DNA from: an uncultured Candidatus Binatia bacterium
GTDB taxonomy: Bacteria > Desulfobacterota > Binatia > UBA9968 > JAJDTQ01
NCBI GenBank assembly: GCA_965213675.1
Contig: OZ243916.1
Location: 1,184,001 to 1,248,000 of the forward strand
Direction: 5' to 3'
Length of the DNA stretch: 64,000 nt
Every line of letters begins with the position of its first letter. The stretch's first letter is position 1. Under the pieces are notes generated by a model. The model was not told where the DNA came from and ran no database searches. It saw only the letters and a list, made by a program, of their open reading frames with translations. Both the position numbers and the translations under genes were made by a program. Positions 8,073 to 47,430 of this stretch are shown in pieces.

Positions 8073-8978
8073 ATGACAAACACGATGATCGACGCACCTT
8101 CACAGGCCCGGCGCAAACCTTCGTGGCTCAAGGTGCGGCTGCCCGCCGGTTCGGACTACAACCGCCTCAAGGACAACTTCCGCGGGCTCAAGCTGCACAC
8201 GGTGTGCGAGGAGGCGCGCTGTCCCAATCTGGCCGAGTGCTGGAGCGCCGGAACCGCCACCATCATGATCCTTGGCGATGTATGCACGCGCGGGTGCCGG
8301 TTTTGCGCGGTGAAGACCGCCCGGACGGGGACGCCCGTGGACCCGGACGAACCCAGGCGGGTGGCGGAGGCATTGGCGCGCCTGGACCTTCGCTACGTGG
8401 TCCTCACCTCCGTGGACCGGGACGACCTGGACGATGGGGGCGCGGGGGTCTTCGCCCACACCATCCGCGAGACCCGGCGGCGCTGCCCGGAACTGATCAT
8501 CGAGGCGTTGATCCCGGATTTTCGCGGCGACATCCGCGCCCTCGGGAAGGTCGTGGACGCCGCGCCCCAAGTGATCGGGCAGAACCTCGAAACCGTCCAA
8601 CGCCTCACTCGCCAGGCCCGGGACCGGCGCTGCGGCTACGAACAGACCCTGGACGTGCTCGCGAACGTCAAGACGCTGAACCCGCGCATCTACACCAAGA
8701 GCGCCCTCCTCCTCGGCATGGGCGAGACCCGCGAAGAGGTGCTCGCCACCATGCGCGACCTGCGCGCCCGCGGCGTCGACATCCTCACCCTGGGCCAGTA
8801 CCTCCAGCCCACCCGCAAGCACCTGCCCGTGGCGGAGTTCGTGCACCCGGACCGTTTCCGGGACTACGAAGAGCAGGGATCGGCGCTGGGCTTTCGCTAC
8901 GTCGCCGCCGGCCCCATGGTGCGCAGTTCCTACAGGGCCGCCGAGTTTTTCGTTGAGAAGCTGCTCAAGCCGCATTGA
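8073..8978 (+). CDS. lipA: Lipoyl synthase
   Basis: [31 protein letters not shown] motifs. Confidence 0.97.
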
Positions 8979-31558: not shown

Positions 31559-32500
31559 TCAGTAGCCACCATTCTCCCTGAAATCAGCGATCTGGAGCGC
31601 GGTAGGCGAGACCAACGTTCCCCACGGCACGACATCGAGATGTGCGAGGTCATTGCGAACCCTATGGAGCCAGTCTATGCGTTTCAACTCGCCCTCGAGA
31701 CTCCTGATCCTTCTCGCTTGGGCGGCCATGTCCCCAATTTCGAGCTTTTCCAGATCCTGAATTTGCTGCCCGTCCTTTCGGAGGTGCGGCAGTTGCCAAG
31801 TGTCCCGATGCTCATCCAGAAGACGACGGCGTTCACGTTCGACCAGTGGGAACAGAACGGCAACCTCCGCTGCCCAGATACGCTCGCGGGAGTGGTCTCC
31901 ATCAGCAAGTATCCGACTGACGGATTGCTCGGCGAGGCTCGCGGCGCGGAGCAAGTCAGCGCCGGCAAGTTCGGCGATGAGCGCACTCTTGAGCGTGACG
32001 TGTGCAGGATTGTGCCCGGAACGGCGACTGCGGCGCTCGAGGAGTACACGACTGTCTGACGCAGTTATGAAATCTTGCCATAGGCGTCGTCGAAGCCGCT
32101 TTTCTTCGCCGTATCCTTCGGCACAAGCTGTCTGCGACGCGATACAAATACGGGGCATTTCCGTGAGCTCGGCACACTCGTGGACATGGCGAATCCATTT
32201 TGCCACCGTTTCTTCGTCCGTGGCTTCCACCCACAGAACGAGCGCCCCAGTATCATGCTCTCTGGAGCGCTTCGCCATGGACTGTATGGGAGTCAGTATG
32301 CCCGCTTCTGCAGATCTCACGGCAGACCAACGCCCGATACCCTTACGTTTAAGTAGGTCGGCGAGTTCCACCGCGAACAAATCTCTCGCATCATCCGGGA
32401 GCCCTGCGAGGACGGCGCTACGGTTGACGAGATCTTCAACCATAGTCCACAGGAAGTCCACTGGGCCCGGCAAGTTGGCCCAACCACGTGGGAGACTCAT
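31559..32500 (-). CDS. Hypothetical protein with C-terminal RxxxxH (HEPN-like) motif
   Basis: 313-aa ORF, ATGA-coupled to the upstream ATPase; WLHRVRNDLAHL. Confidence 0.7.
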   Translation of the reverse strand: MSLPRGWANLPGPVDFLWTMVEDLVNRSAVLAGLPDDARDLFAVELADLLKRKGIGRWSAVRSAEAGILTPIQSMAKRSREHDTGALVLWVEATDEETVAKWIRHVHECAELTEMPRICIASQTACAEGYGEEKRLRRRLWQDFITASDSRVLLERRSRRSGHNPAHVTLKSALIAELAGADLLRAASLAEQSVSRILADGDHSRERIWAAEVAVLFPLVERERRRLLDEHRDTWQLPHLRKDGQQIQDLEKLEIGDMAAQARRIRSLEGELKRIDWLHRVRNDLAHLDVVPWGTLVSPTALQIADFRENGGY

Positions 32501-35500
32501 TCGCTGAAGTAGGCAGTGAGGCCCTTCGCATAAGCCGCATCGAGACGGTAGCCGTCACCATGCCTGCACACGATGCCGAGACGATCGGCCCATCGGACAA
32601 TCTTGACCACGTCTGTTACGGAGACCGGCCTGTCCACAGCTCCAGACATTTCCGACAATTCATCGACGCTCATCGTTTCCTGAGCATCGTAAAACTCGGA
32701 CAAGACGTGAAGCACAGGTTCTGCCTCCCGAACGTCGAGAACGTCGGATACTATGTTCTCCTCCTGAAGGGCAATATCGGCCGCTTCCGCCACTGAGGAT
32801 TGGCATTCCGATTCGGCGGCCAGCTCAACCACGACGGGCCACAAGGAGTCGACCGGGTTTTCCAGGTCGGCAAAAGCCTGCGCCTCCAGGTCTCTCAACC
32901 ATGAGTATGCAAAGCCCCTGGCACAAGGTCCGAGCCACACTTCCCAAACAGTCGCCCTTCCCTTGCGCCTTGACCGTCCCCGGTTCATCCACTCCCAGGC
33001 TTCGGCGGGACCACCGAGGAGCACAGGCCGGACGATTCGTTTACTGGAACTAAGTGCTCCAATGAATCCAAGCACCGTATCCAGCAAGTGAGAATTCCAT
33101 CCGCTACGTATATCCACGAGAACGAAATGAACACCGGCCTCGCGCCTTCGTGACGCAACTTGAAGTTGCGACCTGACAGACTCCACGTCCGGTATCTCCT
33201 TCACGACGAGGGGCTCTACCGATCGCCCCTTTCCCTCGGCCGCCTGAATAAGGGAATCCTGCACCCGATCGAGGTTAAGGCCAGCGAGTCGTGTGCCGAA
33301 TAACAGCGCTACCCACGGCTTGGGGGAGAGTAGTTGGTCTTCCTGTTCGGCCGTGAGCACAGACAATCGCGGTCCGTGGACATCAATCGTGCGGCGGAAC
33401 TGGGATGGATCGAAGACCAGGTGCGGCTCCCGATCCTTGGCATCATTGAACCGCCGCTCAATCTCGTCCTCGTTACCGAGTAACATACGCAAGTTGCGTG
33501 TACGAATGGCGAACCCTTCATCACCCACTTTTCGAAGTATACCGAGGCCAACCATCTCTTCGAGAAGAACTTCAAAAGCCAAATGAGTCCGATCGGAATC
33601 GAACGCTTGAGGCCATTCACTCAATGCTGTTTCTCGGATCGCATCGATCGACATGTCACCTAGTCCCATGCGGTCGTCATGGAAACTATTCCATGCAATG
33701 AGATAAGCGAGGAATTCGTACCGGGAATCGAGATGTATCGTCCACGAGAACAAATTCCGGATCCGATCGCGCGTTTCCTTGGAGTGGAATGCGTGGTCAA
33801 TCTGTTCCGGTAAGACTATGAAGGGGGGACCGAGCGCGTCATCGTTCTCACGCAGAACCAGTAACAGATCCTTGCAGAATTGCTGAGCGAGAGCTGGATA
33901 GTAATTCGTCTCCGCGGCGATCCGTATAACCGAATCCCTCGATTGGAAGCGATGACCGAGCGCCTCAAACGGCGCACGTATCAGATTCTCGATCTCGGCA
34001 CCATCGGTCTCGGGCAGCATTGGTCCGATGCGGACCGGAGCGCCCAAATGCGCCAACGGTGTATTAGGATCTCGAGCCGCTCGTTGAACGTTGTGGAGCC
34101 CGGCGAACACGACCTTGAATCGCCTGTCCGTGTCTTCCATCAACTGCTTGATCTGCTCAAGCACATGGTAGGGCGGTTTTTGCAGCCGATCTGCATCTAG
34201 AAAGTCGTCGGCTTCGTCCACCAGAAACAATATCCGACGAACCGGGTCGCCTTTGAGCCACTGCTGCACGCTCGCTTGGAACCTGTCATAGCGAACCGTT
34301 CCGTCCGCGACGACTTCATGCTCTGCGAGTTGCTTGGTGAACAAGCGCCATAGCTCATCGGTCGGTAGCCTCTGTCCGATGCCCGACGCCTTAAGATTGA
34401 GAACAAGTACCAACTGATCTGGTGCCCGAGACTCGTACTCGCGCGCAATGTGTCTGAAGAGAGCAGTCTTGCCGAGTCTCCGCCCGCCATAGACGAAATG
34501 AGTCATGTCTCCGCCGGACACGGCAAGGATCTTGTCGCGCTCCTCCTTGCGCCCGAAGAACATTTCGGGCGGAACCTCGACCGCGTCCGGATCAAACGGT
34601 TGAGTGAATGTAAAAGCCGAAGCGCAATCGAAAAAGGCGCCTTGTCGCCGGCCGGGCAGCGCGGAAAGAAAGGCAACGAGCGCCTCGTCGAGCACTAACG
34701 TCGGTTGGCTGTCGCCGACCCTGAACTCGCGCGCGAGCTCGCGGCGCGTGGCAACATCCAGGACACTCAAAAAAAGAACTATATTGGGCCGGTGTTCGTC
34801 CGCGGTCCATGCCCCCGCTTCCCGAACGATCGCCTCGTGGGAGTCGCGGCCGCGGATCGTGAAAAGCCGGTACCGTCCTCCGGCGCGTGAACCGAAAACC
34901 GGAAGTTGTGCGATGTTGCGGTCCGTAATTGAAGAGCTACGTAGATCAAATACTGCTTCTCCGTCATTCGTCCGGGCATCGGTCAAGTCCACACGTGCTC
35001 TCGCGAAACCGAGCGCATTCACAACTTCGCCCAACTTCTCGTTGGTCGTCGCGCCCGTGTAAAGTGCCTTCCATGCTTCAAGAAGTCGGACGCCATCGCG
35101 GGCCGAATCGGGCGAAAGAGTCGTCGCGTCGATACATTCCACGCGGTTGCGGTCATTGACCGCCTGACGGACATCCCCAAGCGCGTCTGGCCTGTCGGCC
35201 CGGAACGCACCATATGCTTCAACAAATTCCGGGAAAAACCGATCAAGGGGACGATCTGCCTCCACATCGGATCTTGGCAGCGAATCGCCCCCAGCTATCC
35301 GGTTGATGAAATCATCTGCGACTTGAAAACGGTCGGCGTTGATGAGACCTTCGATTCGTACCCTGTTCTCCTGAGACGTATCAAGATCCTCCAGCCGTGT
35401 CTGAATCTTTGTGCGAAAGCGTTCGTGACTGCTGTCGATCTCCCTCTCGATTGCGTCAAGGTCATCAAACAACGTCCTAAACTCGCCAATCTCCGATGAA

Positions 35501-38250
35501 TCTGGAGGGGTCAGCCGGTCGCCGAGCCGGTCATGGTCCTCTGCGGACAGGATACCTAAAGCATAGGATACGTCGAGCCGGTTTCTCGTCTTGTCATGCC
35601 TGCTCTTGAGACGCTCCGAGGTAACCGAGCGCTCTTTCTCGACTCTGGTTTTGACACGGGCGATATCCCTTTCATCGAGAAGATTGCCTCGTTCTACGTA
35701 TTCCAGGACAAACTCGGCTGCCCGAAAGTCGCCATACTGAACCCGTTCGACAATGCCACGCTCGAAGTCAAGACGATCCTGCTCGGCAAAACGTAGCAGG
35801 ACGCTGGTCGAAGGCAGCGTTTCGTGAATAAGCCCGCTTACACCGTCCGATCGAACGCTGGAGTCGGCGAACAGATCGCCATTCAGTAAATCCTGCAATC
35901 GGAGACGCGTGGAGGGTGCCTCGCTTCCCGCGTTTTCGAACATTTCGACGTAGCGCTCCACCAACCTTCTAGCTTGAAGTGCCGCCCGGGTGTTGAGCGA
36001 GGCGATCTCCTGAATCGCACCTTGGCCTTGGTCATGCACCGCCGAACGTAGTTTTTCCGCCACGGCTATGCTGGATTCTTGCCTTCCGTCTGGCCGCGTT
36101 TGAAGCAGATTGTCCCAACGATCAATGAAACCAACGGCCTCACGGATTTTTTCACGCAAGCGCAATCGTGCATTCCCGGTGATTTGTTTTGTCCGCGGAG
36201 TGCCCCGTAGGGAGCGATCTACCCTATCTATTTCGTCTTCGCCGTACCGCCGCCAATGTTCAGCAATAGCCTTGACGCCCGCGATATCGATCTTTTTGGC
36301 TGGCGTCGCCAGCAACTTGAACATGCCGCCGATAGAACAGCGTTTCTTCTCTGTCCATTCATCAAGTATCCGGTGCCAGACCTTGGTCGCAGCCCCGAAC
36401 TGTATCTTCGATTGGCGCTCCGCGTCGATCCAGTGCGTCCCTTCCTTCTGAAGGAACTCGGCCCTTTCGGTCCAATCCGCCTCCGGGGAGGCCTCGCCGC
36501 GAAGTAGTTTTGCAGGAAGATGGACACCAACCTGGGAGACTTCCGCCGCGACCTTCACCAATTCCCGCAGGGCCGGCATCCCATCGAAGCCAGTTTCCAG
36601 CGACAACAGCAACTGGGCGATCGGCCAACCCGGAGCGATTTGCGCAGGTATCAACGCCGCACCGGCGGCAAGAGCCAAATAATCTACCCGATCGGCCTTC
36701 GGCCTTCGAACCGACCCAGAGCAATTCATCAGGTTAGCGACAAGCGAATCCCGCTCATCGGTCACATGGCTACTCGCAATGAAGGTGATTGTTTCTGGTC
36801 CCGGTAGCGCGTCTGGGGCAGAGAGAGCAAGATGGTAGGCTACCCCAAAGCGATCGTGCTCGAGTGCTGTCACTATCGCCGCCTCGATTTCCCCGGGCGA
36901 AACAACTCCGTCGCCGCGGGAGGTCGTCGTTCGATTACTTTCTCCTTTAAGATGTGCCGAGATCGCATCGCCCGAAGACGCAACGTGCGCGCCATCGATC
37001 GTTGCAGCCTCGTCGAGAACGTCCATTTCCTCGTCCGTAGCCGGTTCCAGTTCGGCGTCATCAACTGGCGATACGACATCGGTTTGTAGTTCTGATGCGA
37101 CCTCGTTCGCATCAAGGAAGGCGCCTTCCGATGCCTCCTCGCTCCTCACCTCCGGCCCTACTTCCAAGGTGTGTCTCGGCGCATGGCCCTTACGTTGCAA
37201 TTCGAAAAGGGTCGAGTTGATGACCGCGTGTGCCCTTTCCCGCTCATCATTAAGCGACGCGAGAGCAGTACCAAGGGAACCCACCAAGAGGTAGTCCTCG
37301 TCCTCGCGTGCCTGATCCAGGGCTTCACGTTTCTCATTGAAAGTAACGTCGGTAACGAGCGCGGCCTCGAAGAGATGGAGAATTTCTTCTAAGTGCTGTT
37401 GATCGATGTTACAGGTGTCAGCCCAAGCTTCGAGCCTTCCAAAAGTGGTCGCCAGTTCTTGGGCGTCGGCGAGCACCTCCGAATAGGATTCCCGCCAAGC
37501 CGAAATCCGCGATTTCTGTTGCTGGATGTTACGGCGCTGAGCCTCACGGGACTCAGCGATCTTGATCAATTGGCCGACGTGTTGGCCAAGGGTCTGGAGC
37601 AAATCCGGTTCCAGGCGTCCAGCGCTCAAGGTCGCCGCTCTCGCCTGAATCTTCTCGATAAGTGCCGTGGCTTCAATGCGTTCGTTATCGTCTGTTGGGT
37701 GCTGCTCTTCAGATCGGTCGCTGTCGAAATGAAGGCCCGCACGGACATCTTTCAGAAAGGTCTCTGCGTCCGGGTGTCTTTCGAGTGCGTCGAGAAGGTA
37801 GTCTGCAGAATCGAACAGGACGCTTTGCGCCCAGACGAATTCGGCGAATCGGTCCCATTTACCTGTTTGGGCAAGCGCACTCCCGTAGTCATCGGCATTC
37901 GGCCTCGAGATCAAGTGGTCGACGCCCAACTCGGTGGAATTCTGCGCATTTCCCAGGCAGGCCTTTCTCAGGCGACGAGGAAGATCCGCCCGCCCATGCC
38001 GTTTGCGCTTCCCTCTTTCGAAGACTTCCTTTGCGCTCTCGTAGTTGGTTCGACCTTCCGCCGTACTGAGCAGGACATGCAAGCGTGTGTAGAAATCGCC
38101 AGTCGACACGGTCTTCTTCCAAGTGGAAGATGACACGTGTTCCAACGCCTCTGCAAAGGCTCGCTCCTGAGTCTTGGCAAACTGCAGAACCTCTTTGAGC
38201 CGTCCGGGCGTCAAGGTGGACGGAAGTCCGTCGCCTAGAAGATACGACAT
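32497..38250 (-). CDS. Giant (1917 aa) P-loop NTPase, STAND-like, probably defence-related
   Basis: MFFGRKEE, Walker A GGRRLGKT, Walker B LFLVDEAD, VVFAGLHNVQR; long helical-looking N-terminus; lower GC. Confidence 0.8.
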   Translation of the reverse strand: MSYLLGDGLPSTLTPGRLKEVLQFAKTQERAFAEALEHVSSSTWKKTVSTGDFYTRLHVLLSTAEGRTNYESAKEVFERGKRKRHGRADLPRRLRKACLGNAQNSTELGVDHLISRPNADDYGSALAQTGKWDRFAEFVWAQSVLFDSADYLLDALERHPDAETFLKDVRAGLHFDSDRSEEQHPTDDNERIEATALIEKIQARAATLSAGRLEPDLLQTLGQHVGQLIKIAESREAQRRNIQQQKSRISAWRESYSEVLADAQELATTFGRLEAWADTCNIDQQHLEEILHLFEAALVTDVTFNEKREALDQAREDEDYLLVGSLGTALASLNDERERAHAVINSTLFELQRKGHAPRHTLEVGPEVRSEEASEGAFLDANEVASELQTDVVSPVDDAELEPATDEEMDVLDEAATIDGAHVASSGDAISAHLKGESNRTTTSRGDGVVSPGEIEAAIVTALEHDRFGVAYHLALSAPDALPGPETITFIASSHVTDERDSLVANLMNCSGSVRRPKADRVDYLALAAGAALIPAQIAPGWPIAQLLLSLETGFDGMPALRELVKVAAEVSQVGVHLPAKLLRGEASPEADWTERAEFLQKEGTHWIDAERQSKIQFGAATKVWHRILDEWTEKKRCSIGGMFKLLATPAKKIDIAGVKAIAEHWRRYGEDEIDRVDRSLRGTPRTKQITGNARLRLREKIREAVGFIDRWDNLLQTRPDGRQESSIAVAEKLRSAVHDQGQGAIQEIASLNTRAALQARRLVERYVEMFENAGSEAPSTRLRLQDLLNGDLFADSSVRSDGVSGLIHETLPSTSVLLRFAEQDRLDFERGIVERVQYGDFRAAEFVLEYVERGNLLDERDIARVKTRVEKERSVTSERLKSRHDKTRNRLDVSYALGILSAEDHDRLGDRLTPPDSSEIGEFRTLFDDLDAIEREIDSSHERFRTKIQTRLEDLDTSQENRVRIEGLINADRFQVADDFINRIAGGDSLPRSDVEADRPLDRFFPEFVEAYGAFRADRPDALGDVRQAVNDRNRVECIDATTLSPDSARDGVRLLEAWKALYTGATTNEKLGEVVNALGFARARVDLTDARTNDGEAVFDLRSSSITDRNIAQLPVFGSRAGGRYRLFTIRGRDSHEAIVREAGAWTADEHRPNIVLFLSVLDVATRRELAREFRVGDSQPTLVLDEALVAFLSALPGRRQGAFFDCASAFTFTQPFDPDAVEVPPEMFFGRKEERDKILAVSGGDMTHFVYGGRRLGKTALFRHIAREYESRAPDQLVLVLNLKASGIGQRLPTDELWRLFTKQLAEHEVVADGTVRYDRFQASVQQWLKGDPVRRILFLVDEADDFLDADRLQKPPYHVLEQIKQLMEDTDRRFKVVFAGLHNVQRAARDPNTPLAHLGAPVRIGPMLPETDGAEIENLIRAPFEALGHRFQSRDSVIRIAAETNYYPALAQQFCKDLLLVLRENDDALGPPFIVLPEQIDHAFHSKETRDRIRNLFSWTIHLDSRYEFLAYLIAWNSFHDDRMGLGDMSIDAIRETALSEWPQAFDSDRTHLAFEVLLEEMVGLGILRKVGDEGFAIRTRNLRMLLGNEDEIERRFNDAKDREPHLVFDPSQFRRTIDVHGPRLSVLTAEQEDQLLSPKPWVALLFGTRLAGLNLDRVQDSLIQAAEGKGRSVEPLVVKEIPDVESVRSQLQVASRRREAGVHFVLVDIRSGWNSHLLDTVLGFIGALSSSKRIVRPVLLGGPAEAWEWMNRGRSRRKGRATVWEVWLGPCARGFAYSWLRDLEAQAFADLENPVDSLWPVVVELAAESECQSSVAEAADIALQEENIVSDVLDVREAEPVLHVLSEFYDAQETMSVDELSEMSGAVDRPVSVTDVVKIVRWADRLGIVCRHGDGYRLDAAYAKGLTAYFSE

Positions 38251-38390
38251 TGTAATGACACTAGCGATAATTTCTCTTTTGGGTTGGTCTACATGTAGAT
38301 GTTCCTTTATGTCAAATGGTTGACACTTGGTCTTCCCCGGGTTTGGCGGACATCTGATAAGGGGCGATGATGGCCTTGGAGGTGAGGACC

Positions 38391-38678
38391 ATGACTCGGA
38401 CGAGACGGAGGTATTCGAAGGAGTTGAAGCTCGAAACGGTCAAACTGTTCAAGGAAGGACCGCGCTTGGTCGGAGAGGTCGCCCGTGATCTGGACTTGAC
38501 GGAATCGGCGGTTCGCAATTGGGTGCGGCAGTTCGACGTGGACGCTGGTGTGCGCGAGGGGGTGAGCACGGGCGAGCTCGAGGAGGTACGCCAGTTGCGG
38601 TCGGAGAACCGGCAGCTACGGATGGAGCGCGACATCCTAAAAAAAGCGACGGCCTTCTTCGCCAAGGAATCGATGTGA
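38391..38678 (+). CDS. IS3 family transposase OrfA
   Basis: RRRYSKELKLETVKL...VARDLDL..SAVRNWV...ERDILKKATAFFAKE. Confidence 0.9.
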   Translation: MTRTRRRYSKELKLETVKLFKEGPRLVGEVARDLDLTESAVRNWVRQFDVDAGVREGVSTGELEEVRQLRSENRQLRMERDILKKATAFFAKESM

Positions 38679-38883
38679 GGTCCGCGTTCATCGAGGCGGA
38701 GAAGGCCAGATTTCCCGTGACCATGATGTGCCGGCTGCTTGAGGTCTCTCGAAGCGGCTTCTACGCCTCGCGTGCTCTCACGACGCCCACGCGAAGCGTA
38801 GAAGCCGCTTCGAGAAACCTCAAGCAGCCGGCACATCATGGTCACGGGAAATCTGGCCTTCTCCGCCTCGATGAACGCGAACC

Positions 38884-39171
38884 TCACATCGATTCCTTGG
38901 CGAAGAAGGCCCTCGCTTTTTTTAGGATGTCGCGCTCCATCCGTAGCTGCCGGTTCTCCGTCCGCAGCCGGCGTAGCTCATCGAGTTCCCTCGTGCTCAC
39001 GCCCTCACGCACACCAGCGTCCACGTCGAACTGGCGCACCCAATTGCGAACCGCCGATTCCGTCAAGTCCAGACCACGCGCGACCTCTCCGATCGAGCGC
39101 GGTCCTTCCTTGACCAGCTTCACCGTTTCCTGCTTGAACTCCTTCGAAAACTTCCGTCTCTTCCCTGTCAT
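38884..39171 (-). CDS. IS3 family transposase OrfA (second, diverged copy)
   Basis: KRRKFSKEFKQETVKL...ERDILKKARAFFAKE. Confidence 0.9.
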   Translation of the reverse strand: MTGKRRKFSKEFKQETVKLVKEGPRSIGEVARGLDLTESAVRNWVRQFDVDAGVREGVSTRELDELRRLRTENRQLRMERDILKKARAFFAKESM

Positions 39172-39334
39172 GGTCGTCACATCCGAGGCCATCATCGCCT
39201 CTTATCAGATGTCCGCCAAACCCCGGTAAGACCACTCTGTAAGGGCACGTTGGACGTCTCTTGCGAAGCTCGGTTGCGCGAGTCGCGAATCTCGCGCGGA
39301 CAACCGTACGGCGTGTGAGATCACCGGAAGCAGA

Positions 39335-39772
39335 TCACGCGGCCTCGCCGACTGTCACGCTCACACGCTTCCCCAACCGGCGCAATGCGCGGTCGATGGT
39401 GGCTGCCTTCGTGACATGATCCGGATTCAGCATGCGCTGCACCTCGCTCTCGGCAACATTGAGGTCGTGGGCGAGACGGCTTTGCGACATGCCAGCCTTA
39501 CGGAACGCCTCGTAGAGGGCCGCCTTCAGCGCAATCGGCACCGGGGGAACAACAATCGGCCGACGCCTAGTCGCGCGCGATGGCTTCGGCAGGTCCCTAC
39601 CCTCACGCATCGTAGCCGCGATCAACTCTCGAAGCAGGTCACGGGCTTCGACCAGCGCCTCGTCGCGAGTCGCGCCGTCCGTTGCGCCCCACCCGAAATC
39701 CGGAAACGCGACGATATAACGGCCGTCCTGGTCGCGCTCGATCTCGGCGGGAAAGTTGTAGGTGTCCGACAT
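39335..39772 (-). CDS. hicB: HicB antitoxin with C-terminal HTH
   Basis: YIVAFPDF..GATDG.TRDEAL, DLPKPS, SQSRLAHDL. Confidence 0.88.
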   Translation of the reverse strand: MSDTYNFPAEIERDQDGRYIVAFPDFGWGATDGATRDEALVEARDLLRELIAATMREGRDLPKPSRATRRRPIVVPPVPIALKAALYEAFRKAGMSQSRLAHDLNVAESEVQRMLNPDHVTKAATIDRALRRLGKRVSVTVGEAA

Positions 39773-39814
39773 CGGTTCAGTTCTCCATATTCGGGCAGCT
39801 CCAGTACTCACCCA

Positions 39815-40027
39815 CTAGAATTCGTCCCTGTCGATCCCGAGGTCGGCAAGCATCTTGGCGAGCAGTCCCTTGCCGATGTCCTTCTTTCGATCCTTGACGC
39901 CAGTCTTCCGATCTCCCGCGTAGAGCGTTCCGTGCGATCCCAGCCCTTCCGACACCACGAAGCGAATCTCCAAATTCCGGGCCCTTGCCCATTGGCGGAC
40001 CCTGGTGATGAACTGCCGCCCGTTCAT
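39815..40027 (-). CDS. hicA: HicA mRNA interferase toxin
   Basis: 70 aa with GLGSHG and KDIGKGLLAKMLADLGI; AGGAG RBS; upstream of hicB. Confidence 0.85.
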   Translation of the reverse strand: MNGRQFITRVRQWARARNLEIRFVVSEGLGSHGTLYAGDRKTGVKDRKKDIGKGLLAKMLADLGIDRDEF

Positions 40028-40451: not shown

Positions 40452-40844
40452 ATGTTCATGAGAGCTGTCCATCCCGGCGAGGTCTTGAAAGGCGAGTTGG
40501 AAGAGTTGAGGATCACTCCGACGGAATTCGCGCGGCAGATCGACGTCCCCCCAAACCGGGTTAGCCAGATTGTCGCCGGGAAGCGTTCGGTCGCGGGCGA
40601 CACCGCGCTACGCTTCGGTCACTGGTTCGGCAGCGATCCCCAGTTCTGGCTCAACCTTCAGACCCAGTACGACTTGCTTCAGGCCGACAGGGAGACCGGC
40701 GCCGAGATACGTCATCTGCCGACCAAGGCGAGCGTTCCAGGAAAGGGTGTCGGTCCAGGGATCGCATGCCCAGAGAAGGAGCGCGAGCGCGGATTGGCGG
40801 AAGCTGAGGGGCGGTGTTTCGGACAGACACGTCCAGGCGGCTGA
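40452..40844 (+). CDS. higA: HigA-family antitoxin (orphan)
   Basis: VHPGEVLKGEL, EFARQIDVPPNRVSQIVAGKR, TALRF, FWLNLQTQYDL; AGGAGG RBS. Confidence 0.88.
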   Translation: MFMRAVHPGEVLKGELEELRITPTEFARQIDVPPNRVSQIVAGKRSVAGDTALRFGHWFGSDPQFWLNLQTQYDLLQADRETGAEIRHLPTKASVPGKGVGPGIACPEKERERGLAEAEGRCFGQTRPGG

Positions 40845-41399: not shown

Positions 41400-42026
41400 A
41401 TGGCGCCAGAACGCGCGGTCCTCTTCATCGACGGAAGCAACTTTTACCATGCCGCCAAGAACATCGGAATCGCCACGGGAGAACTCGACTATCAGAAATT
41501 GGCCGAAAAACTCGTTATGAATCGGCAACTGGCCGGTATCCGATACTATGTCGGACAGGTTTCCGGCAATCTCTCCCGACGCTCGTCTCAAGAAAAGTTT
41601 CTGAGCAGGATCCAGCGCCAAGGCGTAGAGGTTTTCAAGGGCCGAATCGAGCGCAGGATAGTCCCCCCGAACGACAATCCATTGATTGGGAGGCTAAAGG
41701 ACGTAGTCGCGACCCATAAGTCCGATCTCCGTGGGCCAATTCTCGTCGAACTTGAAGCCTTGTGCAAAATGTCCGTCCCTCAGTACACCGAGAAGCGGGT
41801 CGATGTTTCAATCGCCGTGGACATGGTTACAATGGCGCACGGCGGACAATACGATATAGCGTATCTTCTCTCGGCAGATGGGGATTTCGTACCGGCAGTC
41901 GAAACCGTCAAGAAATCGGACAAAAGGGTATTCGCGGCTTCTCCGGCCTCCGGGTACGAGCTTGGAAGAGCCGTCGATAACTTCATTCCACTCAGACGGG
42001 ACTGGTTTTTTGGCTTGTCCGTATAA
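41400..42026 (+). CDS. NYN/LabA-DUF88 (PIN-fold) ribonuclease
   Basis: LFIDGSNFY, IRYY, EKRVDVSIAVDM, LLSADGDFVPAV, VDNFI. Confidence 0.92.
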   Translation: MAPERAVLFIDGSNFYHAAKNIGIATGELDYQKLAEKLVMNRQLAGIRYYVGQVSGNLSRRSSQEKFLSRIQRQGVEVFKGRIERRIVPPNDNPLIGRLKDVVATHKSDLRGPILVELEALCKMSVPQYTEKRVDVSIAVDMVTMAHGGQYDIAYLLSADGDFVPAVETVKKSDKRVFAASPASGYELGRAVDNFIPLRRDWFFGLSV

Positions 42027-42318: not shown

Positions 42319-43239
42319 TCAATCGACGCCCCAGTCAAGCATCTTCTCGTGGCGCCAGGATGACGTTCTGCCATCCGGATACATCGTTGGAATTTCGGCC
42401 TGGTATCTTGATTTTCGGCCTGTCGGATCTTCTTCGGCAAAGACCGCGACCACGCGGGCTTCGACAGAACGCCGCCTTGGCGCATCCTCCCGTGTCGTTG
42501 GATCGTTGAAGGCGGTGTGAAAGGTGACCCGGGAGGCCAGATCCTTGATGCGGGAATCGTATTGCCTGAAGATCATCGCCTCGTTCGGCTCCATTCGTGG
42601 AAAGTAATGCCAGCTCTGGGCCATGTCATGAACAAGGCGGTACAATACCACGCGGGTGCCCGGCTCGGTCAGACGCCATCCCTCGGAACTGACCATGTCA
42701 TCGGCCGAGATGGTCGTATGGTCGCACAAGGCAAGGGGTTTTGACTCGATTGCCTGCAGGGGGTCTATGCTGCGCCAGACAGTGTAGACGCCGAAGTGGT
42801 GGCCATCAGGTATGTCGAGCACATCCTCGACATAGGGAGTCAGATCCGCGTGGGGCGTCTCCGCATAGGTTCCGGCGCCGTTGGGCGAAATTGGCACACC
42901 GGTGCGAAACTCGTGCTGCATGGTCCGTGCACAAAGGCATCCGGTTGCCGCCATGACCAGTTCCGCGCACTGGTCGTAGAATCGGGAAACGACATCGTCA
43001 TGATTGCCGTAATCCATATCAATCGGCGCATGTACCAGCTCGAACCCCATGCGCCCGATGGTGGCGGCCGGTTCGAGGGCACGCGCATCGTGAACGCGGA
43101 TCGGCTTGACAACGAGCATTTCCGAATGATCGGCCCCATCACCGTGGCATGGCAGCCGGAACCCCCGGTATCTCGGATTCACGAAGGCACTTTCCGAAAC
43201 AACAAACGGCGTATCGGGAAACAATGGCAGAGTTCTCAT
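42319..43239 (-). CDS. CmcJ/NvfI/AsaB-family non-heme iron oxygenase-like protein
   Basis: DARAL..GFELV, HAD, VWRSI, PLALCD, WHYFPRM, TFHTAF.DP, RRSVEAR. Confidence 0.8.
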   Translation of the reverse strand: MRTLPLFPDTPFVVSESAFVNPRYRGFRLPCHGDGADHSEMLVVKPIRVHDARALEPAATIGRMGFELVHAPIDMDYGNHDDVVSRFYDQCAELVMAATGCLCARTMQHEFRTGVPISPNGAGTYAETPHADLTPYVEDVLDIPDGHHFGVYTVWRSIDPLQAIESKPLALCDHTTISADDMVSSEGWRLTEPGTRVVLYRLVHDMAQSWHYFPRMEPNEAMIFRQYDSRIKDLASRVTFHTAFNDPTTREDAPRRRSVEARVVAVFAEEDPTGRKSRYQAEIPTMYPDGRTSSWRHEKMLDWGVD

Positions 43240-43391
43240 GGCGCTGACCCTGTCAAACTGTCTGGCGCAAGGCCAAGTCACGAAACTGGCCTTCTGCCGC
43301 CAGCAATTCGTCGTAGCTTCCGGTCTGCACAGATGTCAGATCCGGGCCAATGATGCCACGGTGCAATCCGGCGGCAAATCCCGCTGCCACA

Positions 43392-44906
43392 TCATGACGT
43401 CGGCAGGTCCTGGAATTCGGGCGGTTGTGCCTTGCAGTAATCGTCAATGAATTGCTGGTGGTCCGGAAACTCGTTCACCTGCTTGTCGACATTTTCGTGG
43501 ATGTCGGCCAGGTATTGCCCCAGTTCCTCGTCGCTCATCGCATTGGCAATCGGGTGATACTGTTCCGGAATCAGACCCTGACCCAGCATGACCTGTGCCC
43601 ATGACGTGGTGCCGAATAGTTCCGCCTGGTTCCACGCTATCCGGCCCGTTTGACGAAACAACTTGATCCGGTGTTCGAGGGAGTCGGGAATGTTCATGGT
43701 CCGGCACTGCCGCCAGAACAGCGTATCCGAGCGGTTGGTCACATGGTAGTGCAGGATGATGAAATCCCGGATATTGTCGATTTCAAGCTGCATGTGGGAA
43801 TTGAACTCTGCGATCCCGGCTTCGCGAATTCCGTTATCGGGGAACATCTGGACCAAGCGGGTGATGCCACGCTGAATGAGGTGGATGCTGGTCGATTCGA
43901 GCGGTTCGATGAAACCGGATGCCAGTCCCACGGCAACGCAGTTCTTGTGCCAGTACCTGTGCCTCTGGCCGGCTCTGAAACGGATCAGCCGCGGCTCTCC
44001 AAGCACCCGACCCTGCACATTGTCGAGCAGCCGCGCCCTTGCCTCGTCGTCGGACCAGTGCCGGGAGGAGAACACCATGCCGTTCCCGACCCGGTGCTGC
44101 AGCGGAATGCGCCATTGCCACCCCGCTTCATGGGCTATCGAGCGGGTATATGGTTGCGCGGCTCCCGACGATTCGGTTGGCACCGCGATTGCGCGGTCAC
44201 AGGGCAACCAGTCGCCATAATCATCGAAGCCGACGTCGAGGGTTTGCCCGATCAGGAGCCCGCGAAAGCCAGTGCAGTCGATGAACAGGTCCCCGGTGAC
44301 GAGTTGCCCGGATTGCAGGCGCAGACCGGTTATGAATCCACTGGCCGGATCCTGTTCCACCTGCTCAATGCGTCCTTCATGCCGGACAACGCCAAGCTCC
44401 TCGGCAATACCTCGCAGGAATTGTCCGTACAGTCCGGCATCAATATGATAGGCGTAGTTCAGAACGTTGTGCAGGCTGATTGCAAACCGGTTGCGCAGCG
44501 ACGCCGTTGTTTCCGGACAATAGTCGCCATAATCCCGGGCCAAGCCCAGCAAATGGCCCCTCAGCCAGTAATGCTGAAAGCCGGCGGTCCAGCGCTCCCT
44601 GCCGACCCACCCGAAGGAATGGAAATAGTCTTCGCCCAGGTCCCGCCAGTTCTCGAACGAAATTCCAAGCTTGAAGGTGCCCTGTACAGCCCGCAGGAAA
44701 TCAGTCTCCCTGACATCCATGTATTCGTGAAAAAGTCGCAGCGGTGGAATCGTTGCTTCACCCACGCCGACAGTACCGATCTCGTCGGATTCGACCAGGG
44801 CAATGTCCAGGGTTTCGCGGAGCTGCCGGGCAAACATTGCCGCAGCCATCCATCCGGCAGTCCCACCGCCGGCGATCACGAGTTTCCTGATTTTCCTATT
44901 GTGCAT
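43392..44906 (-). CDS. Flavin-dependent tryptophan-halogenase-family enzyme
   Basis: GGGTAG, GVGEATIP, catalytic Lys in TFKLGI, YAYH, WQWRIP, FIEPLESTS. Confidence 0.93.
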   Translation of the reverse strand: MHNRKIRKLVIAGGGTAGWMAAAMFARQLRETLDIALVESDEIGTVGVGEATIPPLRLFHEYMDVRETDFLRAVQGTFKLGISFENWRDLGEDYFHSFGWVGRERWTAGFQHYWLRGHLLGLARDYGDYCPETTASLRNRFAISLHNVLNYAYHIDAGLYGQFLRGIAEELGVVRHEGRIEQVEQDPASGFITGLRLQSGQLVTGDLFIDCTGFRGLLIGQTLDVGFDDYGDWLPCDRAIAVPTESSGAAQPYTRSIAHEAGWQWRIPLQHRVGNGMVFSSRHWSDDEARARLLDNVQGRVLGEPRLIRFRAGQRHRYWHKNCVAVGLASGFIEPLESTSIHLIQRGITRLVQMFPDNGIREAGIAEFNSHMQLEIDNIRDFIILHYHVTNRSDTLFWRQCRTMNIPDSLEHRIKLFRQTGRIAWNQAELFGTTSWAQVMLGQGLIPEQYHPIANAMSDEELGQYLADIHENVDKQVNEFPDHQQFIDDYCKAQPPEFQDLPTS

Positions 44907-45325
44907 AACCTGCCTCTGGACGGTCGAGTTGGCGCATTCGCGCCATTGCCGGACCTGGTACAGGGCGGTTCAGTGTGGACAAAATCTGCAGTCTGACATA
45001 CGAGGCATCGACCAGACCCGGAAGTCTGGGACCGGGCAGCATGGGAATGCCGACACATGTGATGCTCAAAATGTCGATTCCGATCTCGAGTTCGGCATCC
45101 GGAGCATGTCAATGCCGATTTCGGCTCTGACGACAAATCAGGGATGACCGGCGGCCCAACGGATCGCCGCAGCCTGACACAAAATTGGCGCGCACCCATG
45201 ACCGGCAGCGCTGGCGGATGGAAGTCCCGCTGGAAGAGACGGCAACTCACCCGAAAGGAATGGTGCAGACTCCAGGCCGGTCTGACCCGGTCGGCATGGA
45301 CAGAGTATCGCGTGCAATGCCCGGT

Positions 45326-45516
45326 TCAACTCAGTCGCGACAATTCGGGAATGGCACCGCTGTCTTCAAGGACATGGATGGCGATGCCGTCCCGAACCGA
45401 AAGCCCGGTTGCGTCCTTGATGGCTGCCTTCGGGTCATTCAGAGCCGGGTGCGGAATTCTCCGTCCTCGTCGGCCCTGGCAAGCGCCTGTGCCTAGATCT
45501 GTGACGGTGAGTTCAT
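45326..45516 (-). pseudogene. Second, inactivated NHLP precursor copy
   Basis: MNSPSQI*AQALARADEDGEFRTRL, 1-nt deletion, NDPKAAIKDATGLSVRDGIAIHVLED, then truncated; upstream TGTTCAGAGAA also duplicated. Confidence 0.85.
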
Positions 45517-45620
45517 GTCCGTTCGCCCTGTTCTCTGAACATTGGCACGACGGCATTGCTTGGCAGGAAGAATGCCTCCGGCAGAAAATCAGCAGATCAC
45601 TGCCGGAGACCCGACAATAC

Positions 45621-45881
45621 TCACCAAGTGTTGATGTCACCAATCCCGCCGGCAACGCCCCTGATTTCCTCATCCGACAGGTTGCGGCCCGCCGGTGGCA
45701 GGACGAGGTGATAGTCGGTGGCGTTGTCTTCAACGACATGAATATTGATGCCGTCCGGAACCGAAAGCCCGGTTGCCTCCTTGATGGCTGCCTTCGGGTC
45801 ATTCAGGAGCCGGGTGCGGAATTCTCCGTCCTCGTCAGCCCTGGCAAGTACCTGCGCCTCGACTTGTGATTGTGTGCTCAT
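45621..45881 (-). CDS. NHLP (nitrile-hydratase-like leader) proteusin precursor; predicted core IGDINTW
   Basis: RADEDGEFRTRLLNDPKAAI, IHVVED, HLVLP, LSDEEIRGVAGG double-glycine leader end; AGGGGG RBS. Confidence 0.92.
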   Translation of the reverse strand: MSTQSQVEAQVLARADEDGEFRTRLLNDPKAAIKEATGLSVPDGINIHVVEDNATDYHLVLPPAGRNLSDEEIRGVAGGIGDINTW

Positions 45882-45954
45882 GTCTGTTCCCCCTATTCTC
45901 TGAACATCGCCATAGCGACGTTACGTCCTGCCGTTTTCCACGCCCATTGAACTT

Positions 45955-45983
45955 AATTTACTTTAAGTCATTGTTCGAGTCAA
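45955..45983 (-). promoter_or_regulatory. Sigma70-type promoter upstream of the NHLP precursor
   Basis: Minus strand TTGACT, 17-bp spacer, TAAATT. Confidence 0.6.
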
Positions 45984-46113: not shown

Positions 46114-47430
46114 CTAATCCGCCGGCCCTTCCGGCCTCAACTCCCGCACCCCCTGGTTGGCGACCGCGGTGATCCCCACCACCGCGAGCATCGAGACTCC
46201 GCTCAGGATCACGGCGGACGGGGCGCCGGCGAGGCCGCCGAGGAACGCGCCCAGGTGGTCCCGGGACAGGCCGGCCACGGCGCCCATCTGCAGTTGCCCC
46301 AGCGGGAGGACGACGCTGTAGTTCATGCCCCAGATGGCCATGACCCGGCCGCGGTACTGGTCGGGCACGCGGGTCTGAACCGAGGTCTGGGTGCTCACCA
46401 TGAAGAAGGAGAGGCCGACGCCGGCCATCAACAGCATGCCCAATGCCAGCGGAAAGGCGCCGGAAAAACCGAACAGCGTGAGGAAGAAGGCATGGATTCC
46501 GGCGCCCAGAAGAATCAGCCATCCGCGCTTCGGGAAGTAACCGAGGTTGGCGGCCACCAGGGCGCCGAGCAGGGCGCCGATGCCGCTGACCACGTACAGG
46601 GTACCCAGGGTGGAGCCGTCGCCGCGGAACACGACGTCGGCGAAGACCGGCAGGAGCGCAGTGTGGGACGCCAGAAAGAAGATGTCCAGGTAGTTCAGTC
46701 CGATGAGGGAGCGGAAGAGCTTGCGGGTCCAGACGAACGAGAGCCCCCCCAGGAGAGTGCGGATGAAATTGCCGCCGCGGGTGCGTTCGATGAACGGCAC
46801 CCGTACAGGAAGGAGCAACAGGCCGAACGCCAGGTAGGTCGCCGCGGCTACGTAGTAGGCGGCGCCGGCGCCGGACAGGGGGGCGCCGGTGTAGTCCGCC
46901 ACGTAGTCGATGGTGAACCCCGCCAGCGCGGGTCCGAAGATGCGCGTCCCCGGCCAGATCATGGAATTGAGGCTCACCGCGTTCATCAGGTGGGAGCGAT
47001 CCAGGAGGTGCGGGAAGAGCGCCTGGCGGGCGGGATGGTCGAAGGCCTGTATGCCGCCGTGGATGGCGGCAACGGCGAACACGTGCCAGACCTGCACCAG
47101 TCCGGTGGTTACCAGCGTGGCCAGCACCAGCAGCAGGAGCGCGGTGACGTACTGGAGCAGCATGAGGAAGCGCCGGAGCTCCAGCTTGTCGGCGGCGGCG
47201 CCGCCGAAGAGCGTCAGGGCTATCGCCGGGGCGGCGGCCACCAGACCCAGGGCGCCCAGCACATACTCGGACCCCGTCAACTCCCAGGCCAGCCACCCGT
47301 GCGCGAGGATCAGCATCTGGTGGCCGGCCACCGCGGTGAGGTGCCCGAACCAGTAGAGCCGGAAGCTGCGGTACCGGAGGACGCGGAAGACGTGCAGCTT
47401 GTCGCCGATGCGTGTGAGGAGGTGGTTCAT
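46114..47430 (-). CDS. MFS transporter (EntS/MFS_3-like)
   Basis: FRLYWFG, WELTGS, FDHPARQA, NAVSLNS, RIFGPALAG, VPDQYRGRVM. Confidence 0.9.
   Translation of the reverse strand: MNHLLTRIGDKLHVFRVLRYRSFRLYWFGHLTAVAGHQMLILAHGWLAWELTGSEYVLGALGLVAAAPAIALTLFGGAAADKLELRRFLMLLQYVTALLLLVLATLVTTGLVQVWHVFAVAAIHGGIQAFDHPARQALFPHLLDRSHLMNAVSLNSMIWPGTRIFGPALAGFTIDYVADYTGAPLSGAGAAYYVAAATYLAFGLLLLPVRVPFIERTRGGNFIRTLLGGLSFVWTRKLFRSLIGLNYLDIFFLASHTALLPVFADVVFRGDGSTLGTLYVVSGIGALLGALVAANLGYFPKRGWLILLGAGIHAFFLTLFGFSGAFPLALGMLLMAGVGLSFFMVSTQTSVQTRVPDQYRGRVMAIWGMNYSVVLPLGQLQMGAVAGLSRDHLGAFLGGLAGAPSAVILSGVSMLAVVGITAVANQGVRELRPEGPAD

Follow-up and report, generated by a model that had tools for sequence, protein, structure and literature searches.

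The 64,000-nucleotide stretch of contig OZ243916.1 from an uncultured Candidatus Binatia bacterium (the window, in which all coordinates below are given unless a contig is named) contains on its minus strand, between 45983 and 42319, a small gene cluster for a peptide that is made on the ribosome and modified after translation (RiPP). This locus probably belongs, in truncated form, to a family of proteusin (NHLP) RiPP clusters that has spread horizontally and the hosts of which are probably sponge-associated bacteria. The family is characterized by NHLP precursors with short, Cys-free cores ending in W or Y, by the exporters ABC1 (with a C39 peptidase) and ABC2, and by a CmcJ/NvfI-type oxygenase. 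The sub-types each add one enzyme, which is a halogenase of the type of the PDB entries 6y1w and 6frl, a SrpI-type halogenase or an S-adenosylmethionine (SAM) methyltransferase. The chemistry suggested for the window locus by its genes is halogenation of Trp and oxidation near the C-terminus of the peptide. The cluster family has apparently not been described so far.

The genome of the window is designated G000 and its relatives G001-G005, G454, G510 and G538; G003 has one copy on contig C1 (G003a) and one on contig C6 (G003b). From 45983 to 42319 the window locus consists of a promoter-like site, a precursor gene, a dead precursor copy, a halogenase gene, a 78-bp remnant and an oxygenase gene (Table 1). 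The intact order, found in five loci (G001, G002, G004, G005 and G454), is precursors, HalA, ABC1, ABC2 and CmcJ1, with the oxygenase open reading frame (ORF) beginning about 14 bp past the ABC2 stop; in G001 a further stretch of about 5.5 kb, without any Pfam match, is inserted. The 995-aa gene of G002 matches TIGR03797 NHLM_micro_ABC2 (649 bits), and the 739-aa gene before it matches TIGR03796 NHLM_micro_ABC1 (829 bits) and has a Peptidase_C39 domain. The DNA homology of the window to the intact loci breaks at the halogenase stop (43393) and restarts at 43330, and about 5.4 kb has therefore been lost. The ORF tail of the remnant is identical to the C-terminus of ABC2, a 995-aa protein encoded directly before the oxygenase in the relatives, and in a blastp search the remnant covers ABC2 residues 965-995. 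At the DNA level, the comparison shows that the window locus is a deletion derivative from which ABC1 and ABC2 are gone. The original prediction, made from the sequence of the window alone, had described a minimal cluster; this description is ruled out by the ABC2 remnant and the five intact relatives. Its suspicion of partial erosion, raised by the lack of an evident peptidase or exporter, was correct, with ABC1 (the C39 peptidase) and ABC2 lost and the second precursor dead. The promoter-like site, the intact precursor, its dead duplicate, the halogenase and the oxygenase that it had reported were all confirmed in place on the minus strand, and so was the low-GC tract around them.

Table 1. 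Position of the elements of the RiPP locus in the window
Feature	Position	Strand	Basis
Promoter-like site, TTGACT-17-TAAATT	45955..45983	-	sigma-70-like consensus scan, 9/12 positions
NHLP (proteusin) precursor, 86 aa	45621..45881	-	TIGR03793 leader_NHLP, 75.7 bits (cut-off 50.9)
Weak terminator-like hairpin just 3' of the precursor stop	45590..45605	-	pattern scan
Dead precursor copy	~45340..45516	-	direct repeat of the intact precursor
Flavin-dependent halogenase HalA, 504 aa	43392..44906	-	PF04820, 626.7 bits
3' remnant of ABC2 (TIGR03797 type), 78 bp, ~24 codons and stop	43253..43330	-	ORF tail VQTGSYDELLAAEGQFRDLALRQTV
CmcJ/NvfI-type Fe(II)/2-oxoglutarate oxygenase CmcJ1, 306 aa	42319..43239 (full ORF 42319-43281)	-	NF041278 CmcJ_NvfI_EfuI, 153.9 bits (cut-off 80)

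Three junction states were found in the genus. The window has the 78-bp remnant, the copy on G003 C6 has lost about 89 bp more in a nested deletion, and on G003 C1 the halogenase TGA abuts the oxygenase ATG. The halogenases of the C6 copy and the window share 99% identity, and the nested junction of this copy supports the deletion junction of the window. All three states leave the halogenase and the oxygenase tightly coupled. On G003 C1 the three-gene module lies directly downstream of a precursor-ABC1-ABC2-CmcJ2 cluster. The two copies of G003 (the same genome as G362 below) are located at C6:1-4400, on a 17-kb contig, and at C1:232001-250000, behind the cluster with the core SWSALW. Downstream of the C6 copy there are ORFs similar to those of the window, and this copy may truly be a second one in G003 or may stem, as a binning carry-over, from a window-like strain.

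The linkage of precursor, halogenase and oxygenase, the absence of which from other genomes had been named in advance as the result that would count against the prediction, recurs at nine other loci in eight genomes (G001, G002, G003 twice, G004, G005, G454, G510 and G538). The oxygenase marks a wider set of clusters. Context was obtained for 22 oxygenase genes of its clade, which are those of the window, the second locus of the same genome, G001, G002, G004, G005, G003 C1 (two), G003 C6, L040 and 12 further loci. An NHLP precursor is present in the stretch for 19 of the 22; the three without one are L040 and L159, the contigs of which begin inside ABC2 and end inside ABC1, respectively, and L163, in which none was seen. 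ABC1 and/or ABC2 are present for 20 of the 22, the exceptions being the window and G003b; in this count L040 shows only ABC2, and the CmcJ1 of G003a is counted with the pair of its neighbour. The 12 further loci, which come from the family scans described below, each carry ABC1 and ABC2 next to the oxygenase, and in ten of them there is an NHLP precursor. The FastTree phylogeny of 95 CmcJ-family sequences, taken from all fetched loci, gave the 22 as one clade with a support of 0.997, the sole extra tip being L041, a 1.7-kb contig without context. A scan of metagenomes with the oxygenase alignment gave 80 loci, with RiPP context only at L040 (90% identity, the contig starting inside ABC2). The other 79 (L041-L119), many of them on short contigs, had no NHLP match, and neither had the marine group among them at 35-43% oxygenase identity (L043-L058).

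The distribution of the oxygenase clade is patchy. A protein search against species-representative genomes found five loci at 88-94% identity, two of them in Alphaproteobacteria and one each in a member of the Rhodospirillales, Candidatus Poriferihabitaceae and Candidatus Binatia. When the families of four relatives were scanned, with the clade taken at E values up to 1e-70 and the centre genome included in the count, it was present in 2/39 genomes (G001), 7/69 (G002), 2/33 (G004) and 4/37 (G005). Within the class of the window, oxygenases above 500 bits are restricted to 2 of 401 genomes, G000 and G362, which belong to the same genus, and 39 further genomes gave generic matches only (about 141-166 bits); two of these, G213 and G377, are not used for any conclusion on the peptide clusters. 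Within the genus, 1 of the 27 other genomes has a clade oxygenase. The synonymous divergence (dS) between copies from different classes and phyla is 0.06-0.40. This combination of patchy distribution and low divergence indicates horizontal transfer and points to a recent spread of the cluster family. The probable association with sponges rests on the name Poriferihabitaceae of one relative, on the presence of srp clusters and on what is presumably the sponge origin of some metagenome-assembled genomes (MAGs), to judge from their names.

The precursor supports the assignment to the proteusins, and the NHLP locus with a Cys-free, Trp-terminated core that had been predicted was recovered well above the TIGR03793 cut-off. 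Residues 1-79 form the leader, which ends in GVAGG, and the core is IGDINTW. The closest solved relative is the NHLP leader 8tb1 (phmmer, E 9.6e-15). Across 17 precursors the G78-G79 pair and an L68-x-D70-x-E72-[ILM] motif are invariant. The precursor thus has both the double-glycine boundary and the upstream hydrophobic-xxxx-hydrophobic motif by which proteusin precursors are recognized. The latter is L(-12)xxxxI(-7) in the window, in the same position as the LXXXXL leader motif described in PMC10858898 as required by SrpI and bound by the LahT protease. The cognate ABC1/ABC2 exporters expected of a proteusin cluster are found in the relatives, and within the window they are represented by the remnant only.

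The dead copy belongs to a direct repeat, in which 45358-45547 is 85-91% identical to 45722-45912. It has an in-frame TAG at codon 8 and a 1-nt deletion, and the homology is gone after about codon 55, including the core. By the match of its 5' end it is an ortholog of the third precursor type found in the related loci, which is frameshifted in G005 and has GR instead of the GG cleavage pair in G001.

In the family 12 distinct cores were found, all of them Cys-free and all ending in W or Y. Most have the tail [D/N/H]-[S/T]-[W/Y], and the C-terminal aromatic residue is the sole feature common to every core. The cores can be grouped into five sub-types. Sub-type (i), with CmcJ1 and the 504-aa HalA, is found in the window and relatives and comprises the cores IGDINTW, IGDIHTW, SISDIDTW, ISDMDTW, TNNYGPWGW, TTNDYNPWGW, IGVDGVRNATGTPTW and TGVDDVRNAIDTQTW, the last read from a truncated gene; these eight distinct HalA-linked cores all end in W. 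Sub-type (ii), with CmcJ2 and a 424-aa halogenase, has the core SWSALW and occurs in G000 and G003. In sub-type (iii), with the core FAPGGDSW, CmcJ2 is directly followed in all four loci (L157, L158, L160 and L161) by a CMAS-like SAM methyltransferase of about 260 aa (Methyltransf_11/25). Sub-type (iv) has the core IAPTDDSY and a CmcJ2 gene that adjoins the precursor, and was found in two nearly identical loci (L164 and L165). Sub-type (v), with the core WAPTDDSY, is represented by L154, where a SAM methyltransferase also adjoins CmcJ2 and a HalA homolog (69% identity) lies on the opposite strand. A full-text search of the literature for five of the core strings gave no occurrence. In G538 the frame 5' of the ISDMDTW precursor (L162:16698-17120, plus strand) contains seven tandem GADLNF hexapeptides, encoded by an 18-nt repeat, which end just before the probable GTG start.

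The halogenase HalA has its motifs intact in translation, namely GGGTAG, K79 in TFKLG, GWQWRIP and EPLES, which are taken here to correspond to the flavin adenine dinucleotide (FAD)-binding GxGxxG, the WxWxIP motif and the catalytic Lys and Glu. Its position among the flavin-dependent halogenases was determined from bit scores against PDB entries and from comparison with the SrpI ortholog of its own genome. The scores are 631.6 for 6y1w, 522 for 9luq, 481 for 6frl and 191 for 5uao. The first and the third of these entries are labelled only as putative tryptophan halogenase and tryptophan halogenase superfamily; 6y1w is presumably Xcc4156, 6frl BrvH and 5uao MibH. Aligned with the SrpI ortholog, HalA shows 26% identity and 20% gaps. 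SrpI, in which K84 is catalytic, Y102 and Y110 are self-brominated and P105-Q-Q-V-S109 forms a leader-binding loop (PMC10286304, PMC10858898), was compared by means of the residues named in these papers rather than its own sequence. At the named positions HalA has K79 for the catalytic Lys and S and R for the two Tyr, and the loop is absent. A reading of HalA as a SrpI-like enzyme was accordingly rejected, and HalA groups with 6y1w and 6frl. SrpI was itself discovered with MibH as hook (PMC12615548).

Close homologs of HalA, at 78-99% identity, form only six clusters, one of which has 77 members with MAG names of Rhodobacteraceae, Gammaproteobacteria and Acidimicrobiaceae. At 66-71% identity there are thousands of homologs in marine Gammaproteobacteria. 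The genome of the window has three PF04820 genes, which are HalA, the 423-aa SrpI ortholog and the 424-aa gene beside the SWSALW precursor. By these placements NHLP clusters have recruited halogenases at least twice, once of the SrpI type and once of the 6y1w/6frl type. In the window and at nine related loci the HalA gene is embedded in an NHLP peptide cluster, which points to peptidyl Trp as the natural substrate of this sub-clade. Among the genomes of the G002 family, which are kin and not independent, HalA-type genes are found in 3 of the 7 with the oxygenase clade and in none of the 62 without it.

The true start of the oxygenase CmcJ1 is likely the ATG at 43239, from which it reads MRTLPLF as in the relatives. 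An AlphaFold2 model (37 homologs) has a mean predicted local distance difference test score (pLDDT) of 89.7. With this model, Foldseek gave NvfI (7emz/7de2; E 3e-21 to 9e-20, template modelling score 0.67-0.77) and CTB9 (E 7e-18), which agrees with a double-stranded beta-helix fold like that of NvfI, and the sequence identity to the CmcJ/NvfI/CTB9 structural matches is 18-24%. H130, D132, H241, R256, E260 and R262, numbered from MRTLPLF, are invariant in 37 oxygenase sequences. In phmmer alignments H241 and R256-x-S258 correspond to His250 and the R-E-S motif of NvfI, the iron ligands of which are given in PMC8292354. The same alignments place His135-x-Asp137 of NvfI six columns off the invariant HAD of CmcJ1, and because of this offset the register of the putative proximal ligands is taken from the invariance in the family and from the model.

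In the phylogenetic tree the oxygenase sub-clades track the core types. A diversification of the oxygenase along with the core is suggestive only, because related sequences share labels. No halogenase was found in the stretches examined for L164 and L165 (IAPTDDSY) and for L157, L158 and L161 (FAPGGDSW). Of the 59 ORFs that flank L157, L158, L161 and L164, 27 were scanned against Pfam, the other 32 being family genes already identified and most short ORFs; no further RiPP enzyme was found among them except the methyltransferase of the FAPGGDSW loci. In cephamycin synthesis, CmcJ and CmcI follow a logic of hydroxylation and subsequent methylation. The methyltransferase after CmcJ2 would fit the same logic; by Pfam, that of the FAPGGDSW loci is not a CmcI homolog. 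More distant homologs of the methyltransferase, with 25-31% identity, were found within the YcaO clusters of L150-L152.

Taken together, the genes suggest the following pathway. The halogenase would, with reduced flavin, halogenate a Trp of the core before the leader is removed, most likely the C-terminal Trp and most likely with bromine. The oxygenase would oxidise the core at or near the C-terminal [D/N/H]-[S/T]-[W/Y] tail. ABC1 would then cleave after GG, and ABC1 and ABC2 would export a peptide of about seven residues. For the window copy, export would have to proceed via one of two ABC1/ABC2 sets encoded elsewhere in the genome, at G000:C1 1154-1159 kb and 71-76 kb; the first, which is that of the SWSALW cluster, is 66 kb from the locus.

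A number of observations weigh against this interpretation. The window copy is without a peptidase and exporter of its own, its second precursor is dead, and it is located at the edge of a low-GC island with insertion sequence (IS) fragments. Kinship or transferred DNA links the related genomes, so that the locus counts are not independent events, and the six-column offset of the NvfI His-x-Asp runs counter to the proposed proximal ligands. The 6y1w and 6frl enzymes presumably brominate free indole in vitro. The substrate and the halide, as well as where and how the core would be oxidised, are deduced from the genes.

The first of these observations bear on the possibility that the window copy is an inert relic, in which the precursor, halogenase and oxygenase decay after the loss of the exporters and no product is made. 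ABC1 and ABC2 are deleted down to just 78 bp, the island next to the locus contains IS3 orfA fragments and toxin-antitoxin genes, and the clade oxygenase is rare in the genus; this explanation is possible, although doubtful. The three ORFs are of full length with their catalytic motifs kept, and the coupling of halogenase and oxygenase is retained in each of the three nested junction states. Across all 21 pairs compared, the ratio of non-synonymous to synonymous substitution rates (dN/dS) ranges from 0.11 to 0.27 in the halogenase and from 0.16 to 0.42 in the oxygenase. For pairs inside the deletion lineage it is 0.13-0.42, on few substitutions; the window and G003b differ by 7 synonymous and 3 non-synonymous changes in the halogenase gene, and by 13 and 7, respectively, in that of the oxygenase. 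Both genes look maintained by purifying selection, the -35 block 5' of the precursor is kept in relatives, and the two ABC1/ABC2 sets are present in trans; on G003 C1 the module follows a cluster that has such a set. The balance of these data is slightly in favour of a precursor-halogenase-oxygenase module that is still functional through one of the two sets.

Another explanation is that the substrates of the halogenase, the oxygenase or both are free small molecules, for example indole, Trp or a Trp-derived compound, and that the proximity to NHLP genes reflects co-transfer or co-regulation. This would agree with the indole bromination presumed for the best-scoring relatives of HalA (632 bits for 6y1w and 481 for 6frl) and with the thousands of homologs in marine Gammaproteobacteria. 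To our knowledge, the characterised members of the CmcJ/NvfI family all act on small molecules (a beta-lactam, a meroterpenoid and a perylenequinone), which includes CTB9. The NHLP-linked oxygenases are, however, monophyletic with sub-clades that follow the core type, the oxygenase gene closely follows the ABC2 stop in intact loci, and the precursor adjoins it in L164 and L165. With the co-occurrence of HalA-type genes and the oxygenase clade in the related genomes of the G002 family, this explanation is improbable. That the CmcJ-type protein has a role other than tailoring of the core, in immunity, in degradation of the leader or peptide or in modification of the transporter, would suit its position at the 3' end of the transport genes, away from the precursor in most loci, and the contextual basis of the peptide substrate, but it is the least probable explanation in view of the invariant putative Fe/2-oxoglutarate (2OG) ligand set, the methyltransferase directly after it in the four FAPGGDSW loci, which would fit hydroxylation and methylation, and the apparent diversification of the oxygenase along with the core type.

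Compared with known systems, the truncated proteusin cluster of the window is closest to the srp clusters, which consist of the SrpE precursor, the SrpC YcaO and the SrpI brominase (PMC10286304, PMC10858898, PMC12615548, 10.1101/2023.06.09.544420). As far as these sources describe them, both have an NHLP precursor with a very short, Trp-ended core and a flavin-dependent halogenase beside it, a leader motif of the LxxxxL type at -12 to -7, NHLP ABC exporters, and nearly identical clusters across bacterial classes and phyla. The window locus differs in having a CmcJ/NvfI oxygenase. It lacks the three features that define srp clusters, which are a Cys-rich core of the LCCCW type (IGDINTW is Cys-free), a YcaO gene in the locus and a SrpI-type halogenase, HalA being on another branch of PF04820.

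The TIGR03793 precursor, and in the relatives the ABC1/ABC2 pair, are shared with the NHLP or "NHLM" microcin systems, which are attributed to Haft et al. 2010 in reference lists. Both ABC genes are missing in the window, and the tailoring set is different from the described YcaO, LanM and radical-SAM enzymes. The 6y1w and 6frl halogenases are the best solved relatives of HalA, with a full-length match and common FAD and catalytic motifs; the HalA gene differs in its NHLP context. CmcJ1 shares with CmcJ, NvfI and CTB9 (NF041278; 7de2, 7eus) a hidden Markov model score above cut-off, the fold and the alignment of the distal His and RxS, and differs from them in sequence, at 18-24% identity, and in its linkage to RiPP genes. 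Hydroxylation of a ribosomal peptide by a 2OG oxygenase is in itself known, also from a proteusin. PoyI of the polytheonamide pathway and CinX of the cinnamycin pathway are Fe/2OG hydroxylases that belong to other 2OG oxygenase families.

Among the literature matches listed, none linked CmcJ, AsaB or NvfI to RiPPs, proteusins or NHLP, in agreement with the original prediction, which knew of no such tailoring enzyme; the founding srp paper and the supplements of the SrpI papers may show related clusters. Halogenases, oxidoreductases and cupin-4 enzymes in NHLP clusters of sponges are mentioned by Loureiro et al. 2022, in general terms only (PMC9426513).

The genome of the window contains two more NHLP clusters. 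The second (L038, G000:C1:1153390-1161472) has the order divergent 424-aa SrpI-type halogenase, precursor with the core SWSALW, ABC1, ABC2 and CmcJ2, and is flanked by caprolactamase/hydantoinase-like and TRAP transporter genes. Its ABC1, encoded at C1:1157243-1159384, is just above the TIGR03796 cut-off (854 bits, cut-off 853), and its CmcJ2 is 57% identical to the oxygenase of the window. An earlier reading of this cluster as lacking a halogenase was wrong, the divergent PF04820 gene being located upstream. This 424-aa protein has five of the eight residues named for SrpI and is 74% identical to the 423-aa gene.

The third cluster (L039 and L166, G000:C1 about 61000-80600) is a canonical srp-type cluster. 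It comprises a 433-aa protein with an NHLP-like N-terminus, an FA_desaturase/GlnE fusion, a YcaO, a precursor, an MMPL protein, ABC2, ABC1 and a halogenase. The precursor, at about 68.5 kb of C1, has the core LCCCW and ends in ITEEQLEAISAGLCCCW. The 423-aa halogenase (C1:79324-80592), about 3 kb from ABC1, has all eight SrpI-named residues in register and is on this basis the SrpI ortholog. A possible second role of HalA on the LCCCW precursor was dropped once this ortholog was found. In the relatives the cores of the YcaO clusters are LCCCGV (G001), LCCCGI (G003), LSCCG (G004) and LCCCGI (G005), with no terminal Trp. The three NHLP clusters of the genome probably share exporters. The absence of a YcaO gene from the window, as stated in the original prediction, holds, the single YcaO of the genome being at C1:66085-67095. 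The stated absence of a radical SAM gene does not hold, as a PF04055 domain (72 bits) is present at about 8265-8762 on the plus strand in a 325-aa open frame. It is 34 kb from the locus and presumably unrelated to it.

The consensus scan that gave the candidate promoter yielded five matches in the region with 1.4 expected. The -35 block TTGACTCGAACAATGAC is kept 5' of the first precursor in four of seven aligned loci (window, G001, G003a and G003b) and, in part, in two more (G004 and G005), the surrounding upstream DNA being otherwise unalignable. The hairpin after the precursor may act as an attenuator; the pattern scan gave four terminator-like hairpins with 3.4 expected, which is not above chance. 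An Rfam search of 41-47 kb gave no match.

The GC content is 0.54-0.62 across 31-46 kb and 0.62-0.72 in the rest of the window. Much of this low-GC island is occupied by a 1917-aa ORF (32497-38250, minus strand), the sole Pfam signal of which is a weak AAA_22 match below cut-off (residues 1252-1389, 26.7 bits, cut-off 27). It is followed by a near-perfect inverted repeat at 38328-39234, with 447-nt arms that are 92% complementary and separated by 13 nt. An IS3-type orfA fragment (HTH_Tnp_1) is encoded in either arm; these two genes for transposase N-termini are convergent, and there is no catalytic orfB. Between the IS fragments and the RiPP module there are genes for a HicB-like antitoxin (39335-39811) and its partner of 70 aa (39815-40027), for an HTH_3 protein (40452-40844) and for an NYN-domain protein (41400-42026), and the same set of small genes flanks the copy on G003 contig C6. 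Directly upstream of the promoter region of the precursor there is an MFS_3/EntS-like transporter gene (46114-47430, minus strand; TIGR00900, 172 bits). It lies in normal-GC DNA just outside the tract and is not kept beside the cluster in the relatives.

The cluster family would add CmcJ/NvfI-type Fe/2OG oxygenases to the tailoring chemistry of RiPPs, and the FAPGGDSW and IAPTDDSY clusters, in which the oxygenase is the sole tailoring gene or one of two, would be simple test systems. A tentative proposal, the probability of which is low, is that the clade oxygenases are leader-guided enzymes acting on the C-terminal aromatic residue by beta-hydroxylation, desaturation or oxidative decarboxylation to an enamide. 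In combination with the halogenase, the products would be short peptides with an oxidised bromo-Trp or bromo-tryptamine-like unit as their cap. The small brominated peptide alkaloids derived from Trp that have long been known from sponges, so far without assigned genes, would then have a ribosomal route, and a halogenase branch with no assigned physiological role would have a first natural substrate class, peptidyl C-terminal Trp. The second recruitment of a halogenase suggests, more generally, a natural substrate for this very large group. SrpI has already been used for peptide labelling (PMC10286304), and the enzymes of the HalA sub-clade are potential new leader-guided Trp halogenases for the same use. 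The three NHLP clusters of one genome illustrate how tailoring modules are shuffled, duplicated and pruned.

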